DNA of 64,000 nt from an uncultured Verrucomicrobiales bacterium (GCA_937991965.1 CALKLP010000112.1:3608-67607); one strand, 5' to 3'; shown: positions 56,026-59,401, counted from the first letter of the stretch. A program made the numbers and translations. Notes: generated from the sequence alone by a model not told the origin.

Positions 56026-58014
56026 TCATTCTGTCTCAATAATGCGATAATCAAGTGGAGAAGTGATGTATTTTTTGAGCCTCTTCTTCAAGTAAGAATT
56101 TGGATGGATGATAATACGTTCTAACCCTTTGATTTCAATTTGCTTAGAAACTATTACACGATCTATCTCTCTCAAATCCAGAGTATTAATTTCTAGGCTA
56201 TCAAGATCATTGAGATAAATACTTCCACTACCAGAAATAACTAAATTGCGTAGAGGCAAGTATTTCATGGGGCTTCGCAGCTTATGGATTAGTTCAAGTC
56301 TAATGTGTTTTGATGATTTTATAAGCATTGTTTCATACTTAGCATCCATCTGTGCAGAAAAATCTTCAGTGCTCATGTTGAGTAGTTTTAGCACTGCAGT
56401 TACCACATTACCATACTGCGACATATCTTGACGAGTGGCGACATCGTACTGAATGATTTGTGACATTAACCTAGTATTGATATTCGGAATTGTCTCAGCG
56501 GCTTGTACAAAATTAACCATTTCTTGTATGGTGGGTCGATTGTCTCTTGAGAAGGCATAATTTGGACATAGTGAAGCGTAATCATAAAACTCTTTTCTAA
56601 TTCTAGGGATAGGATTTTCTTTTAATACAGCGGCAAAGTTCATTTTTCCTATGTTAGATCTAAATTGGGCTTGCCTAGCTTTTAGATTGAGAGGGTCGAT
56701 TTTTAGTGTTTTTTCTACAAGTATATCTAATTCTGAGTGAGCTTGAATCGGCTCTTCTAATTCTCCACTCGCACGAATAAACTCATCTAATAATGCATCT
56801 AGTTTTGAGTAAAGGATCTCGCTATCCAAGGCGAAATCTTCAAAAAGCCTATTTTGATAATTCATGTTTTCGATATCCTCGTGTAAAATATCTACTTGAG
56901 TTTCGCTTTCTTTTATAAGCTGCTGTCTCTTAAAAGCTACAACGCTTAAGGCGCATATTAGTGAAAATGATAGAGCGGACACTGTTATGAATTTAGAATG
57001 GCGAATAACAAATAACTTAGATTTACGTATGACATTTGCTCTCTCTGCCTTTGTAGCATGACCTGTGGTATATAGTAGTAGATCCTTTTGCAATGATTCT
57101 ACAGACTGATAACGATTTTCGGGTTTATACTTAGTTGCTTTTATAATGATTGCAGCTAGGCTTTTGGGGATTTTGCGAAGTTCTTCAAATTTATAATTTA
57201 CCCCTCCATGCTTGGATATTTCCATATCTTCTATTTGTTGAAAGGGGCGTTTTCCGGTAACAATATAGTAGAGAATGCAACCGAGAGCAAAAATATCAGT
57301 TCTTTGGTCTTTAGATTCATTGCTTTCTGCCTGCTCGGGAGCCATGAAACCTATAGAGCCTTTGATCTGCCCAAATAAAGTAAGATGCTGCGCTTGAAAT
57401 AAATGCTCTAACTCGGGATATGATTTTTCGCAATCCTCTGACACCTTTGCTAATCCCCAGTCGCATACGAGAACTTCCCCATAGTGGTCACATTGAATAT
57501 TAGCAGGTTTTAGATCTAAATGAATGATCCCCATAGAGTGAGCATAAGCGATAGCATCACATATTTTCGAATAAGCGGCTAGCAATTCTTCTTGGGGTTG
57601 GCATTTTGTATAGTCTTGTAAGGTGGTATTACCCTTAAGATCCATTACAAAGTAAGGCAACCCATCTGTAGAGATTGCTGTTTCATATATTTTGATGATA
57701 TTCGGATGGTTCAGACTAGAAGTAAGCCAGGCCTCATGAATGAGCTGATCATAATAGTCGACAGGGAGATCTGTTCGGAGGATGGCAACTGCTACATACC
57801 GCTTTGATCTCTCATCATAACACTTATAAACTTCTTTCAGTGCTCCTTTCCCAATTAATTGTTTGTTACGATAATACTGTTGAGAAGTCTGAGTTAAACT
57901 AGTATATGCAGGGCAGATTTCACTTAAATTATCTGAATCGGTAAGCAGGTCAGAGTCTATGACACCTCTTAATAGCTCGTTTGGAATATAAGCATGGTTT
58001 TTTTCATTAATCAT
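56026..58014 (-). CDS. transmembrane Hanks-type Ser/Thr protein kinase with atypical (WNK-like) lysine placement
   Basis: 662 aa. G-loop IGKGALKEV, beta3 VAVAIL (no Lys), HLDLKPAN, DWG and GFMAPE. One TM segment (FITVSALSFSLICALSVVAF), then about 300 aa of C-terminal domain. Confidence 0.9.
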   Translation of the reverse strand: MINEKNHAYIPNELLRGVIDSDLLTDSDNLSEICPAYTSLTQTSQQYYRNKQLIGKGALKEVYKCYDERSKRYVAVAILRTDLPVDYYDQLIHEAWLTSSLNHPNIIKIYETAISTDGLPYFVMDLKGNTTLQDYTKCQPQEELLAAYSKICDAIAYAHSMGIIHLDLKPANIQCDHYGEVLVCDWGLAKVSEDCEKSYPELEHLFQAQHLTLFGQIKGSIGFMAPEQAESNESKDQRTDIFALGCILYYIVTGKRPFQQIEDMEISKHGGVNYKFEELRKIPKSLAAIIIKATKYKPENRYQSVESLQKDLLLYTTGHATKAERANVIRKSKLFVIRHSKFITVSALSFSLICALSVVAFKRQQLIKESETQVDILHEDIENMNYQNRLFEDFALDSEILYSKLDALLDEFIRASGELEEPIQAHSELDILVEKTLKIDPLNLKARQAQFRSNIGKMNFAAVLKENPIPRIRKEFYDYASLCPNYAFSRDNRPTIQEMVNFVQAAETIPNINTRLMSQIIQYDVATRQDMSQYGNVVTAVLKLLNMSTEDFSAQMDAKYETMLIKSSKHIRLELIHKLRSPMKYLPLRNLVISGSGSIYLNDLDSLEINTLDLREIDRVIVSKQIEIKGLERIIIHPNSYLKKRLKKYITSPLDYRIIETE

Positions 58015-58016
58015 GT

Positions 58017-58649
58017 TTAGAGTTCTAATTCATTTTTTAGTGATTCCATTTCACGTAGCAGAAGTTTTTTCACTCTTTTTCTAGCAGAATATACAGATGA
58101 TACCTTTAACCCTGTTATTAAGACGATTTCTTCAGTGCTTTTCCCTGCTAATCCTAATTCGAATACTTCAACAGATTTCCCCGTAAACGATGCTTTTACA
58201 CGATCAAGTGCTAAACTGGAAATGTATAAAACCCACTCTTTTTCAATGGAATTTTCGTGATCCGTGTTCGAGCTTAGAGTATCAATTTCGTATGATAATT
58301 GCGAAATCGAAGCGCTTTGGTTTTTCCTCTTATTATAATGTGTAAATGCGGTATTCTTGATAATTTGAGCTAACCACGCGCGAAAGCTTCCCTTGTTTCT
58401 ATCATATCCAGAAAGGTGATTTACTAATTTAACAAGTACAGTTTGTGTAAGATCTTCTTTATCGGCTTCATTAAAATTCATTTGACCAAAAATATAGAAG
58501 CAAAACTGCCTGTAGCGCTCATTGATAGTGGACCAAGCTTCTTGATCATCAAGATCAAGGGCTTGTTTTAATAGAGTATGGCTTGTTTCATTTAAGCTCA
58601 TCGAGGTTTCAGGCAGTAGGCCTTTATTCATACATGAGAAATATAACAT
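58017..58649 (-). CDS. ECF-type RNA polymerase sigma-70 family factor
   Basis: Region 2 (EDLTQTVLVKLVNHLSGYDRNKGSFRAWLAQIIKN) and region 4 HTH (STEEIVLITGLKVSSVYSARKRV). The stop lies 2 nt before the kinase start. The true start is uncertain (ATG at 58649, 58631 or 58601). Confidence 0.85.
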   Translation of the reverse strand: MLYFSCMNKGLLPETSMSLNETSHTLLKQALDLDDQEAWSTINERYRQFCFYIFGQMNFNEADKEDLTQTVLVKLVNHLSGYDRNKGSFRAWLAQIIKNTAFTHYNKRKNQSASISQLSYEIDTLSSNTDHENSIEKEWVLYISSLALDRVKASFTGKSVEVFELGLAGKSTEEIVLITGLKVSSVYSARKRVKKLLLREMESLKNELEL

Positions 58650-58738
58650 TAAAAGTTTTTTTATGCCACTGCCCTAAAAATTAACGAGGTGAGAGTAGTA
58701 TGTATGAAGATTTTTTTAAAAAGACTTCACTCAATATT

Positions 58739-59401
58739 ATGAAAAATACATTACTATTATTCGCTTCAACAATGGCAATATCAAGTGCCGCAGTTATCAC
58801 CACAGCAACTTACACTAACAATGCCGGTTCTGGCGCTATATTTGCCGATGGAGTTCAGGTTGGTACGTTCACCGTCACTACCCCTTACAGCTCAACTCTC
58901 AGCTCAACAGGAGATGGCGTAGAGTTTTTTGGGGCCCAAGTTGGAACATCGAATTCGACAACAGTTGACGTAACAATTACTGACGGTAATTTTAGCTTCG
59001 TTTCAATGACATGGGGAACTCATGAAGGTACTGGAGGTCAAGGGATCGGAGGAGGCACCATTATGGGTGTAGCCTTAGATACGGACGCAACAGTTTCTAC
59101 TTCGGTGGGATCATGGGATATTGGAGGCGCTGCAATTACAACTCCAGTAGCATATACTGCGGGAGAAGTACTTACTACCGCAGGAATCGTTAGTAGCCCA
59201 CATTCTCGGGACTCGTTTTTATTCACAGGCGCTACCGCTACGACCCAAACTATCACATACACTACAGATAGTCTAGATCTTGCTCAAGAGAGATATTATG
59301 TATCGTTTGAGCTTGATGCAATCCCAGAGCCTAGCTCAGCAGCTCTTCTAGGGCTAGGAGGGCTTGCTCTTGTTGCACGTCGCAAGCGTGTTAAGCCTTA
59401 A
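58739..59401 (+). CDS. PEP-CTERM sorting-domain secreted protein (Thr/Gly/Ser-rich)
   Basis: Signal peptide MKNTLLLFASTMAISSAAV. C-terminal IPEPSSAALLGLGGLALVARRKR (PEP motif, TM segment, basic cluster). The track ORF starts at 58700; ATG 58739 is preferred. Confidence 0.85.
   Translation: MKNTLLLFASTMAISSAAVITTATYTNNAGSGAIFADGVQVGTFTVTTPYSSTLSSTGDGVEFFGAQVGTSNSTTVDVTITDGNFSFVSMTWGTHEGTGGQGIGGGTIMGVALDTDATVSTSVGSWDIGGAAITTPVAYTAGEVLTTAGIVSSPHSRDSFLFTGATATTQTITYTTDSLDLAQERYYVSFELDAIPEPSSAALLGLGGLALVARRKRVKP
59324..59398 (+). other. PEP-CTERM exosortase recognition/sorting signal (coding sub-region)
   Basis: Codons CCA GAG CCT (P-E-P) at 59324..59332, followed by a hydrophobic helix and RRKR. 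Confidence 0.8.

Follow-up and report, generated by a model that had tools for sequence, protein, structure and literature searches.

An ECF sigma factor and a WNK-like transmembrane kinase as a candidate switch for a neighbouring PEP-CTERM gene

An ECF sigma factor gene and a transmembrane Ser/Thr kinase gene, standing divergent from a PEP-CTERM protein gene, may form a self-contained two-gene signalling module that controls this neighbour, a reading that we hold with about even confidence. The genes lie in a stretch of 64,000 nucleotides from an uncultured Verrucomicrobiales bacterium, called the window below. On sequence grounds the sigma-kinase pair represents a family found in PVC bacteria, and since related marine bacteria can carry as many as 38 copies of it, it is probably a little-studied way to turn on surface or sugar-handling genes. 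The features that will be discussed are the following.

17591-18532 (-): exosortase (EpsH family) gene in the glycan locus; PF09721, 114 bits, at window 17642-18388 (C112:21249-21995)
55976-56013 (-): terminator-like imperfect hairpin and T-run (TTTTTTCTTTTT) directly 3' of the kinase stop, from sequence and fold
56026-58014 (-): kinase gene, transmembrane Hanks-type Ser/Thr, 662 aa (ORF list)
56029-56931 (-): predicted extracytoplasmic C-terminal sensor domain, residues 362-662 (AlphaFold2 model)
56932-56991 (-): single predicted membrane span, F342-F361, a hydrophobic stretch read from the translation
57082-57873 (-): kinase catalytic domain, residues 48-311, aligned to M. tuberculosis PknB and 51 family kinases
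57784-57786 (-): codon of Ala77, in place of the beta3 Lys (PknB alignment)
57835-57837 (-): codon of the Gly-loop Lys60, in the loop G-K-G-A-L-K60 (PknB alignment)
58017-58649 (-): sigma gene, ECF-type, ORF of 210 aa (ORF list)
58602-58738 (no strand): divergent spacer between the sigma and PEP-CTERM genes, with homologue-corrected starts
58640-58669 (-): candidate housekeeping-type promoter of the sigma-kinase operon, GTGGCA, 18 nt and a TG-n-TATATT extended -10 (consensus scan)
58739-59401 (+): PEP-CTERM protein gene, 220 aa from MKNTLLL by homologue alignment; the ORF opens at 58700
59318-59386 (+): PEP-CTERM tag (profile match)
59428-59459 (+): intrinsic-terminator-like hairpin of 14 pairs, 3' of the PEP-CTERM gene (consensus scan)

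The locus and its PEP-CTERM neighbour

Only bases 58015-58016 separate the stop codon of the sigma gene from the kinase ATG. The probable start of the sigma factor is M17 at 58601, which gives a protein of 194 aa, and with the PEP-CTERM start at 58739 the divergent spacer thus becomes about 137 nt long. Among the ORFs of at least 50 aa in or beside the module, none was found to match an anti-sigma family of Pfam, and the ORF list contains no suitable small ORF for an anti-sigma between the module genes. The sole hint of one is a sub-threshold match to Sigma_reg_N (E 0.006, no stretch passing) on the N-terminus of the PEP-CTERM protein. The GC content is 0.33-0.40 across 56000-58750; the flanks are at about 0.5 (left 0.53-0.55, right 0.42-0.53), and the genome as a whole is at 0.479. 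The original prediction, made from the sequence alone, had described the 2-nt gap, the lack of an anti-sigma, a PEP-CTERM gene as the divergent neighbour and a module AT-rich relative to its flanks, and these observations all stand. The distance of 50-90 nt that it gave to the PEP-CTERM gene, on the other hand, has to be replaced by the 137 nt obtained after correction of the starts.

The PEP-CTERM ORF matches PF07589 with 24.9 bits (cut-off 20.7) and TIGR02595 with 24.7 (cut-off 16). As in exosortase substrates, a C-terminal PEP motif, a hydrophobic span and a basic tail are present, the tail being IPEPSSAALLGLGGLALVARRKR, and the N-terminus, MKNTLLLFASTMAISSAAV, was judged by eye to be a signal peptide. 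The core is predicted to be all-beta, in an AlphaFold2 model of low confidence (pLDDT 59). PF09721 exceeds its cut-off twice in the genome, once on contig C94 and once in the window itself at 17591-18532, where an exosortase had indeed been anticipated.

The same genome contains a second, paralogous triad of PEP-CTERM, sigma and kinase genes on contig C240. Both sigma-kinase modules of the genome thus adjoin one of its 13-14 PEP-CTERM genes, an adjacency that is beyond chance (about 1e-4 if the two cases are independent). Both modules are AT-rich, with a GC3 of 0.31-0.35 vs 0.5, so the three genes may spread by transfer as one unit, and the adjacency could also arise in this way.

The family, its neighbours and promoter-like motifs

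The kinase gene was found directly downstream in 52 of the 64 sigma copies examined in relatives, encoding proteins of 650-690 aa and often with overlapping stop and start codons, and distances among the sigma factors covary with those among the kinases (Mantel r 0.65, p<=5e-4). The two genes are thus co-conserved, as the original prediction demanded. At related loci located with the kinase alignment the pairing also occurs in Pontiellaceae/Kiritimatiellales, Lentisphaera/Victivallales, Puniceicoccaceae, Roseibacillus and Chthoniobacter, and one same-genus genome has 38 copies of the module.

The usual neighbours of the modules are PEP-CTERM genes, sulfatases and carbohydrate-active enzymes. 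In the 38-copy genome, ca 13 of the 49 PEP-CTERM genes flank modules, while ca 1.5 would be expected, which corresponds to a roughly ninefold enrichment. Only about one third of the modules have a PEP-CTERM neighbour, and the rest stand beside, for example, sulfatases, esterases or beta-helix proteins. An all-against-all BLAST of the neighbouring PEP-CTERM cores gave almost no mutual homology, which means that these genes did not simply multiply along with the module.

Upstream of the sigma gene, TTGAC-N17-TAxxxT can be read by eye in many relatives. The evidence for a housekeeping promoter in the window is weak, since promoter-type matches in this region are no more numerous than in shuffled sequence. 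The terminator-like hairpin behind the kinase gene was not called by the consensus scan.

A different motif, consisting of A5+, N8-12, TGT[CT][ACG][ACT] and, after ca N16-19, a G[CT]AT-like element, was found in front of 9 of the 17 PEP-CTERM genes that adjoin a module. Using this pattern, which was defined after looking at the data, matches were obtained for 2 of 207 control genes, 3 of 60 sigma genes and 1 of 33 PEP-CTERM genes away from modules (1/21 in the same genome as the module-adjacent ones, 0/12 in the source genome). Unbiased Gibbs sampling at width 30 on the 17 PEP-CTERM upstream regions performed no better than on shuffled controls, and with 444 matches genome-wide the pattern is too loose to define a regulon. 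The spacer of the window carries on the plus strand only a degenerate copy, TGCCCT (58670-58675), 19 nt and GTAGTA (58695-58700), with a weak A-run at 58651-58654 and the wrong A-tract spacing. As for the strict pattern, its match in the spacer is oriented toward the sigma gene and overlaps an extended -10 there.

The original prediction also called for a conserved ECF-type motif on both sides of the spacer. A promoter-like motif is seen for the PEP-CTERM genes, in the 9 of 17 cases above, but among the relatives no shared one was found upstream of the sigma genes, where dyad and 6-mer enrichment on 59 upstream regions returned AT-rich low-complexity words only. Control of the PEP-CTERM gene by the pair, its central proposal, is plausible: the neighbour enrichment and the motif speak for it at the level of the family, while the window itself offers only the degenerate copy. 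Its suggestion that the exosortase/glycan locus could be controlled as well finds no such backing, as the only intergenic motif match on the contig falls in the sigma/PEP-CTERM spacer, 40 kb from that locus.

A serious, if rather unlikely, alternative is that the sigma/kinase switch is real but acts on something other than the adjacent PEP-CTERM gene. Their proximity would then reflect co-transfer within an AT-rich island or the general clustering of envelope genes, and the regulon would lie elsewhere, for example among envelope-stress or polysaccharide-use genes. The strongly AT-rich character of both copies of the island in the source genome is consistent with this, as are the transposase that adjoins one related module, the other neighbours at two thirds of the modules and the degenerate motif in the window. 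Furthermore, of the PEP-CTERM homologues whose surroundings could be read, the closest (42% identity) stands apart from any module; a different genus does carry a homologue of 34% identity downstream of its sigma-kinase pair. However, co-transfer or clustering has to be weighed against the ninefold enrichment in the 38-copy genome, the mutually unrelated cores of the neighbours and the specificity of the promoter-like motif for module-adjacent PEP-CTERM genes.

The two proteins and the proposed signalling mechanism

The sigma factor consists of sigma2 and sigma4 only, within ca 200 aa, as in ECF (group 4) members of the sigma-70 family. It matches Sigma70_r2 (PF04542, 1.3e-12) and the ECF superfamily model TIGR02937 (60.7 bits, cut-off 42.9, residues 37-200), with region 4 (PF08281) sub-threshold at 18.4 vs 25.7, and its profile matches the solved ECF factors SigE, RpoE and SigW. 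TIGR02989, the Rhodopirellula/Verrucomicrobium sigma family, gives 35 bits at a cut-off of 124.55. In region 2.2 the sequence reads D63-K-E-D66 (context D-K-E-D-L-T-Q), which in the profile alignment falls on DAED of M. tuberculosis SigE, and the three acidic positions are D or E in 91%, 86% and 97% of 58 family members. The N-terminal T22-x-x-T25-L-L belongs to a T-x-x-[S/T]-L-L motif that is invariant across the family.

The kinase matches Pkinase (PF00069) with 146 bits over residues 48-311 and contains the HLD, DWG and APE motifs. In the 51 family kinases the Hanks-type catalytic core is conserved (alphaC Glu in 51, H-L-D-L-K-P-x-N in 50 and D-W-G in 50), so that catalytic Asp, Asn, metal-binding Asp and alphaC Glu are each found in 50-51. 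The canonical ATP-binding Lys of beta3 (VAIK) is missing: Ala77 aligns with PknB Lys40, and Ala occupies this position in 50 of the 51. Instead, all 51 have a Lys at the third position of the Gly loop, the relocation known from WNK kinases. With the beta3 Lys absent, activity can be argued solely by analogy with these enzymes, and on that basis the kinase is probably catalytically active. Conserved segments outside the catalytic core are the N-terminal L-C-P-S-Y-x-x-L and the juxtamembrane E324...R338, after which the membrane span follows.

The last 300 aa of the kinase have no family match in Pfam or NCBIfam. The AlphaFold2 model of this sensor domain (pLDDT 93) shows a helical repeat followed by an LRR-like cap, for which Foldseek found no PDB match at E<=0.001. 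The domain occurs in at least 1365 representative clusters at 50% identity, nearly all of whose full-length representatives are kinases of 650-700 aa, and it is the fastest-diverging part of the protein, with a mean identity of 17% vs 40% in the kinase domain.

We now outline how the module could work. The sigma and kinase genes would be expressed as a bicistronic operon, probably driven by the housekeeping-type promoter and ending at the hairpin and T-run seen in the sequence. The kinase would reside in the inner membrane, with the catalytic domain in the cytoplasm and the 300-aa helical-repeat/LRR-like domain facing outward, where the extracytoplasmic cue that it could sense is probably a protein or glycan-bound protein. 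With an active site of WNK type, in which the Gly loop supplies the ATP-binding Lys, the activated kinase would switch on the co-encoded sigma factor, most likely by direct phosphorylation. As the acidic region 2.2 motif is intact, the phosphosite cannot be that of ECF43/EcfP; the N-terminal T-x-x-[S/T] motif and the Ser/Thr-rich sigma2-sigma4 linker are speculative candidates. The active sigma factor would then take RNA polymerase to the promoter of the neighbour, here the divergent PEP-CTERM gene, as the family neighbourhood and the motif suggest, and the exosortase would process the resulting surface protein. The many module copies in relatives, each with its own diverged sensor and a PEP-CTERM or polysaccharide-degrading neighbour, suggest one signal-specific switch per target gene.

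Another option is that the kinase mainly binds the sigma factor at the membrane in the manner of an anti-sigma, through its N-terminal 45 residues or the juxtamembrane segment, with phosphorylation as the release trigger or directed at another substrate. The intact core-binding motif means that the sigma factor should bind core polymerase unmodified and might be active without phosphorylation, and the conserved non-catalytic segments and the lack of a separately encoded anti-sigma also fit. However, the kinase has no detectable anti-sigma domain, the strict conservation of all catalytic residues argues that catalysis matters, and the kinase-linked ECF factors tested so far are phosphorylated directly (PMC13147305). 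We consider this scenario unlikely.

More speculative still, and in our judgement decidedly improbable, is an extension that makes the module a unit in a surface-sensing system particular to PVC bacteria. Here the PEP-CTERM protein would be both output and co-sensor, its variable all-beta core binding a glycan or surface state that is read by the variable kinase sensor. This would constitute a self-reinforcing, signal-specific switch, present 10-38 times per genome, that fills the role of SusC/SusD with ECF/anti-sigma pairs in the polysaccharide-utilisation loci of Bacteroidetes, by means of a WNK-like kinase and a new N-terminal sigma phosphosite.

It is very unlikely that the kinase is a dead pseudokinase serving only as scaffold or receptor. 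Bacterial pseudokinase families without the beta3 Lys are known (PMC12599244), and the Ala in 50 of 51 relatives would agree with this, but the Lys at the third Gly-loop position is invariant, exactly as in active WNK kinases, as are the alphaC Glu, the catalytic Asp, the Asn and the DWG Asp.

Finally, the original prediction drew an analogy to Vibrio EcfP, in which a phospho-threonine restores core polymerase binding at an uncharged region 2.2; the co-encoded Hanks kinase without an anti-sigma is the hallmark context of ECF43 (PMC13147305, PMC7826278), but ordinary ECF43 membership is extremely improbable and this mechanism was rejected on sequence, because the window sigma factor and its relatives keep the acidic D-x-[DE]-D, aligned to DAED of SigE (D or E in 86-97% of 58 members), where ECF43 has QTTA or STTA in place of DAED/DxxD (PMC13147305, PMC8999054).

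Significance and comparison with known systems

The family provides a defined and abundant test case for kinase-linked ECF factors that keep the acidic core-binding motif, with candidate phosphosites conserved across the sigma family and likely outputs that can be read from the candidate target gene beside each module. Kinase-linked ECF factors are a recognised class, for which, to our knowledge, a mechanism has been worked out for ECF43 only. Marine Verrucomicrobiota and Kiritimatiellota are key degraders of sulfated algal polysaccharides, and we know of few regulators of their sulfatase and CAZyme genes. A family expanded 38-fold among such genes is an obvious candidate regulator, its role in polysaccharide use being suggested by the neighbourhood only.

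Like the ECF43 pairs EcfP-PknT of Vibrio parahaemolyticus and EcfK-PknS of Xanthomonas citri, the present pair combines an ECF sigma factor with a single-pass transmembrane Hanks kinase of variable outer domain, has no anti-sigma and has output genes nearby (a T6SS in the case of EcfK, a candidate gene here). In EcfK the linker between sigma2 and sigma4 also carries phosphorylation; a linker site may exist here too. In contrast to ECF43, the family keeps the acidic DxxD and thereby lacks the defining switch, carries the invariant N-terminal T-x-x-[S/T]-L-L, uses a WNK-like, non-RD (HLD) kinase with a family-specific helical-repeat/LRR-like sensor domain, and reaches 38 copies per genome. Further groups, from Planctomycetes and relatives, are ECF59, ECF61, ECF62, ECF217, ECF267 and ECF283 (Casas-Pastor 2021, PMC7826278), which are kinase-linked, found in PVC-type phyla and retain a DAED-like motif; kinase-linked groups with an acidic core-binding motif must work differently from ECF43, by a mechanism that is unsolved (PMC8999054). 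The type members listed for these six groups are planctomycetal or actinobacterial, whereas the present family was found in Verrucomicrobiota, Kiritimatiellota and Lentisphaerota.

A literature search returned no description of a sigma/kinase/PEP-CTERM arrangement. In genome organisation, and in that only, the family resembles the PUL-linked ECF/anti-sigma systems of Bacteroidetes, where many paralogous, locus-specific ECF switches stand beside genes for surface glycan binding or degradation; there the transducer is an anti-sigma coupled to a SusC-type transporter, here a Ser/Thr kinase.

As in eukaryotic WNK kinases, the beta3 Lys is replaced, an invariant Lys stands at the third position of GxGxxG, and the catalytic core is otherwise intact. 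A bacterial WNK-like kinase family was not found in the literature search. Unlike WNK, the best solved sequence matches of the window kinase are the bacterial PknB, StkP and PknA (127-80 bits), and the best 60 PDB matches, which comprise PknB, StkP, PknA, CaMKII, MARK and similar kinases, include no WNK. The likeness is thus most simply explained by convergence, and the WNK solution has apparently been reinvented in bacteria.

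Gene organization of the module

The original prediction described an AT-rich pair of sigma factor and kinase genes, 2 nt apart, without an anti-sigma gene and beside a PEP-CTERM gene. This arrangement is confirmed by the open reading frames, the Pfam and NCBIfam searches and the GC values. The features in question are the following:

58017-58649, minus strand: ECF-type sigma ORF, 210 aa; likely start at 58601 from alignment with relatives
56026-58014, minus strand: Hanks-type protein kinase ORF, 662 aa
58700-59401, plus strand: PEP-CTERM protein ORF, 233 aa; likely start at 58739 from alignment with relatives
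58669-58640, minus strand: candidate sigma-70-like promoter with extended -10 (TG-n-TATATT), upstream of the sigma gene
56013-55976, minus strand: imperfect hairpin and T-run after the kinase stop
59428-59459, plus strand: 14-pair hairpin after the PEP-CTERM gene

As read from the sequence, two bases separate the sigma stop from the kinase start on the same strand. The sigma ORF matches Sigma70_r2 (Pfam) at 1.3e-12 and TIGR02937 (NCBIfam) at 60.7 bits, the cut-off being 42.9. The kinase matches PF00069 (Pfam) at 146 bits over residues 48-311 and carries one hydrophobic span, F342-F361, and its C-terminal 300 aa have no family match in Pfam or NCBIfam. The third ORF encodes a PEP-CTERM protein, with PF07589 and TIGR02595 both above cut-off. 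Anti-sigma family matches (Pfam, NCBIfam) are absent among the proteins flanking the module. Residues 12-89 of the PEP-CTERM protein (58700-58966) resemble Sigma_reg_N, the Pfam family for the N-terminal part of a sigma factor regulator, but below threshold: the E value is 0.006, the score is 17.3 bits where 26.3 is required, and no stretch passes. The likeness is probably fortuitous, the signal-peptide region accounting for it.

Because the likely starts move to 58601 and 58739, the divergent spacer is ca 137 nt and not 50-90 nt as first given. The candidate promoter is weak evidence, since matches of this kind are no more frequent than expected across the region; together with the hairpins after the kinase and PEP-CTERM genes, it makes the sigma-kinase pair look like a separate two-gene transcription unit. 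The GC content of the module is 0.33-0.40; the left flank has 0.53-0.55, the right flank 0.42-0.53 and the genome as a whole 0.479.

Co-conservation of sigma factor and kinase

When 5.8 billion proteins were searched by a word index, only five sigma relatives turned up, at 39-45% identity; in the three of these that were looked up (P0002, P0004 and P0005), the sigma is followed by a protein kinase or, where the kinase should be, by an ORF truncated at the contig end. The family is present in 15 of 61 related genomes, with 38 copies in a 2.7-Mb genome of the same genus (G002), 10 in another genome and 2 in that of the window. In an even sample of the phylum the sigma family occurs in 24 of 201 genomes, with 1-10 copies each.

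Some 60 loci were fetched, their ORFs called and 64 sigma copies scored. For 52 copies, the next gene downstream, in the same orientation, encodes a kinase of 650-690 aa, and the sigma stop codon frequently overlaps the kinase start; the kinase is adjacent in another arrangement in 3 cases, 4 copies are truncated where the contig ends, 2 are additional sigmas in tandem with a complete pair, and 3 are without a kinase. The pairwise identities of the two proteins covary (Mantel r 0.65, p<=5e-4), and the proposed co-conservation is thus borne out. On average, the sigma is 35% identical, the kinase domain 40% and the sensor domain 17%. The pair thus duplicates and diverges as one unit, of which the sensor is the most variable part. 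That the pair is a functional signalling unit is very probable.

Tandem sigma-sigma arrangements, the extra sigma lacking a kinase of its own, are seen in G002 (e.g. loci L055:6064-7538, L063:537-1827 and L064:1697-4925). Two related sigma copies, at L079:6203-6628 (G019:C1:165649-166221) and G015:C29:12236-12871, contain in-frame stops (one TAG and one TAA each) beside an intact kinase, and are probably decaying.

When the kinase alignment was run against 185,579 species genomes, an isolate of the Pontiellaceae (Kiritimatiellota) and a MAG from the Verrucomicrobiota proved to have full-length relatives, and same-family pairs of sigma and kinase came up in Kiritimatiellales, Lentisphaera marina, Victivallales, Puniceicoccaceae, Roseibacillus, Chthoniobacter and Akkermansiaceae. 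Distant matches in Myxococcota, Acidobacteriota and Planctomycetota turned out to be ordinary kinases.

PEP-CTERM genes beside the modules

The genome assembly comprises 3.45 Mb in 397 contigs (the window being C112:3608-67607), and another contig, C240, holds a paralogous triad, all on one strand:

3386-4021, same strand as the rest of the triad: PEP-CTERM protein
between the PEP-CTERM gene and the sigma gene: hairpin terminator
4094-4738, same strand: sigma, 41% identical to the window sigma
4719-6728, same strand: kinase, 34% identical to the window kinase over the whole length

This triad is AT-rich too (GC 0.33-0.42 vs 0.53), and the two PEP-CTERM proteins are alike in the sorting tag only. 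The genome has only 13-14 PEP-CTERM genes, and each of its two modules adjoins one, with a probability of ca 1e-4 if the cases are independent; chance is therefore unlikely. The independence is weakened because the modules are paralogous, but is partly restored because the orientation differs and the PEP-CTERM cores are unrelated. Elsewhere in this genome, at C94:9082-12540, a second exosortase gene lies directly 3' of the gene for a 900-aa PEP-CTERM protein, which looks like a dedicated exosortase/substrate pair, apart from the exosortase of the window's glycan locus.

PEP-CTERM and carbohydrate-enzyme genes are enriched next to the modules. In the 38-copy genome, about 13 of the 49 PEP-CTERM genes directly flank modules, whereas ca 1.5 would be expected to do so, given 72 flanking positions and a gene total taken as 2,400. 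The neighbours are small signal-peptide PEP-CTERM proteins (ca 200-300 aa, one with a CBM96 carbohydrate-binding module), sulfatases and large secreted proteins with beta-helix plus PDZ, SASA esterase, GH43, BD-FAE plus LamG, GDSL or F5/8-type-C domains. The PEP-CTERM cores of these neighbours are mutually unrelated by BLAST. Among homologues of the window PEP-CTERM protein, whose predicted structure is all-beta with low confidence, one of 34% identity lies directly 3' of a sigma-kinase pair in another genus, one of 42% sits in a housekeeping neighbourhood without a module, and for one of 64% the contig is too short for context.

The large secreted carbohydrate-enzyme-like neighbours also have in common a C-terminal domain of ca 80 aa (...GKxYTLxxSxDLxxxxW...), not covered by Pfam and ending in F-Y-R-[LIV]-x-V a few residues before the stop (L043:1375-4041, L045:8674-11829, L051:6997-10284, L053:3181-6450, L072:78-3869, L078:7586-10888 and L089:6775-9135). 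It may serve these phyla for sorting or anchoring.

We now turn to the upstream regions. The regions upstream of the sigma genes yielded no shared motif, and autoregulation is therefore not indicated. Some module-adjacent PEP-CTERM genes are preceded by an A-tract, 8-12 nt, TGT[CT][ACG][ACT], ca 16-19 nt and a G[CT]AT[AT][AT]-like element located ca 30-50 nt before the start codon. The strict pattern matches 9 of 17 module-adjacent PEP-CTERM genes. It also precedes 3 of the 72 remaining module neighbours (one of which proves to be a PEP-CTERM gene), 3 of the 60 sigma genes and 2 of 207 other genes of the same loci, both encoding large secreted proteins adjoining module remnants. Among PEP-CTERM genes away from modules, it matches 1 of 21 in the 38-copy genome, a control fetched afterwards, and 0 of 12 in the window's genome. 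It is important to point out that the pattern was set post hoc and that unbiased Gibbs sampling did not recover it, so that the motif needs independent confirmation.

For the suggestion that the sigma factor controls the PEP-CTERM gene, the outcome is mixed. The neighbour enrichment and the family motif, of which the C240 triad has a clean copy, speak in its favor. However, the window spacer holds only a degenerate copy (TGCCCT at 58670-58675, 19 nt, GTAGTA, the A-run misplaced), and the only sequence on the window's contig that fits the strict pattern faces the sigma gene, overlapping the extended -10. We consider the chances even that the adjacent PEP-CTERM gene is the sigma target in the window. 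The further suggestion of exosortase/glycan control finds no support, as no motif match lies upstream of these genes on the window's contig.

Another option is that the target lies elsewhere and that the adjacency stems from co-transfer, triad transfer being the main alternative reason for it. Module GC is below that of the flanking genes in 53 of 58 loci (0.467 vs 0.511), the contrast being extreme in the window's genome (0.36 vs 0.49; GC3 0.31-0.35 vs 0.5), and horizontal movement of whole triads is plausible. Any donor would be unsampled, since no sampled relative is closer than ca 46% identity. With the enrichment and the family motif on the other side, we regard a target elsewhere as unlikely, though deserving consideration. 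In another genus, a Transposase_20 gene (L178:102-773) adjoins a triad, consistent with triad mobility.

Proposed signalling mechanism and relation to known systems

The sensor domain was modelled with AlphaFold2 on a 43-sequence alignment. The model is confident (pLDDT 93, pTM 0.85) and consists of nine helices, forming a TPR-like repeat, and a short beta/alpha LRR-like cap; with Foldseek, nothing in the PDB matched it at E<=0.001, and the resemblances to TPR and LRR folds were weak. Searching 1.84 billion representative proteins with a profile of the domain gave 1365 clusters (137 at E<=1e-30). Nearly all full-length members have 650-700 aa and carry the domain at residues ca 360-680, so that it hardly occurs outside kinases of this architecture. 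Such repeat folds generally serve in protein binding, and the cue may therefore be a protein or a protein-ligand complex.

In the mechanism that we propose, the kinase would sense an outside cue and activate the sigma factor, probably by phosphorylating it, though not at the site used in ECF43, a catalogued kinase-linked group, and the activated sigma would transcribe the neighbouring gene. As a whole, this account is our best explanation, at about even odds; its direct phosphorylation step, taken separately, is slightly less probable than that. The kinase could instead sequester the sigma in an anti-sigma-like way, which we find rather improbable. The module has no anti-sigma gene, and the kinase has an intact catalytic core with a relocated lysine.

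In the alignment with PknB, the catalytic Lys40 falls on Ala77 of the window kinase (V-A-V-A-I-L-R), and the third glycine of the Gly loop is Lys60 (G-K-G-A-L-K). Among 51 relatives, the Gly-loop lysine and the alphaC glutamate are invariant, alanine occupies the beta3 position in 50, the non-RD motif H-L-D-L-K-P-x-N and D-W-G are each found in 50 (the remaining sequence is gapped there), and APE is present in nearly all. A lysine relocated to the Gly loop is the arrangement of the active eukaryotic WNK kinases (PMC12599244). The loss of the beta3 lysine and the Gly-loop lysine are thus shared with WNK, whereas by sequence the window kinase is not a WNK relative, its best solved matches being PknB, StkP and PknA. 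A bacterial WNK-like family is not described in a recent atlas of bacterial kinases nor in a pseudokinase review. The missing beta3 lysine would suit a dead pseudokinase, which we deem very improbable given this core.

In ECF43, the acidic DxxD (DAED) of region 2.2 is replaced by uncharged QTTA/STTA, and a phosphothreonine restores the charge (PMC13147305, PMC8999054). The window sigma has D63-K-E65-D66-L-T-Q, in which D-K-E-D coincides exactly with the SigE DAED of M. tuberculosis in the profile alignment; the three acidic positions are D/E in 91%, 86% and 97% of 58 family members, and likewise in the wider PVC set. Since the acidic motif is retained, the EcfP-type switch invoked in the original prediction cannot apply, and an ECF43 mechanism is hardly credible. 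Only three columns are 100% Ser/Thr in the 58 members: T22 (an invariant Thr) and position 25 (S or T), which make up the N-terminal hallmark T-x-x-[S/T]-L-[L/I], and S185, which is probably equivalent to the Ser/Thr that ECF sigmas commonly have where the recognition helix of region 4.2 begins. The sigma2-sigma4 linker of the window sigma is Ser/Thr-rich, and EcfK has a second functional phosphosite in its linker (PMC13147305). These positions and the linker are candidate phosphosites.

In Gemmatimonadota/Acidobacteriota (L119, L128, L131, L150, L153 and L165), canonical kinases of 300-370 aa come after an ECF sigma of a different type. These pairs represent a further kinase-linked ECF group, for which the ECF43 switch is unusable because the sigma keeps an EDAED-type motif.

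Pairs of ECF sigma and Hanks kinase are of a kind already known. The features that distinguish the present PVC family are not described in the literature searched. It is set apart from ECF43 by sequence and is distinct in its sigma signature, its WNK-like kinase and its private sensor domain, as well as in its large lineage-specific expansions and its recurrent PEP-CTERM or polysaccharide-enzyme neighbourhood.
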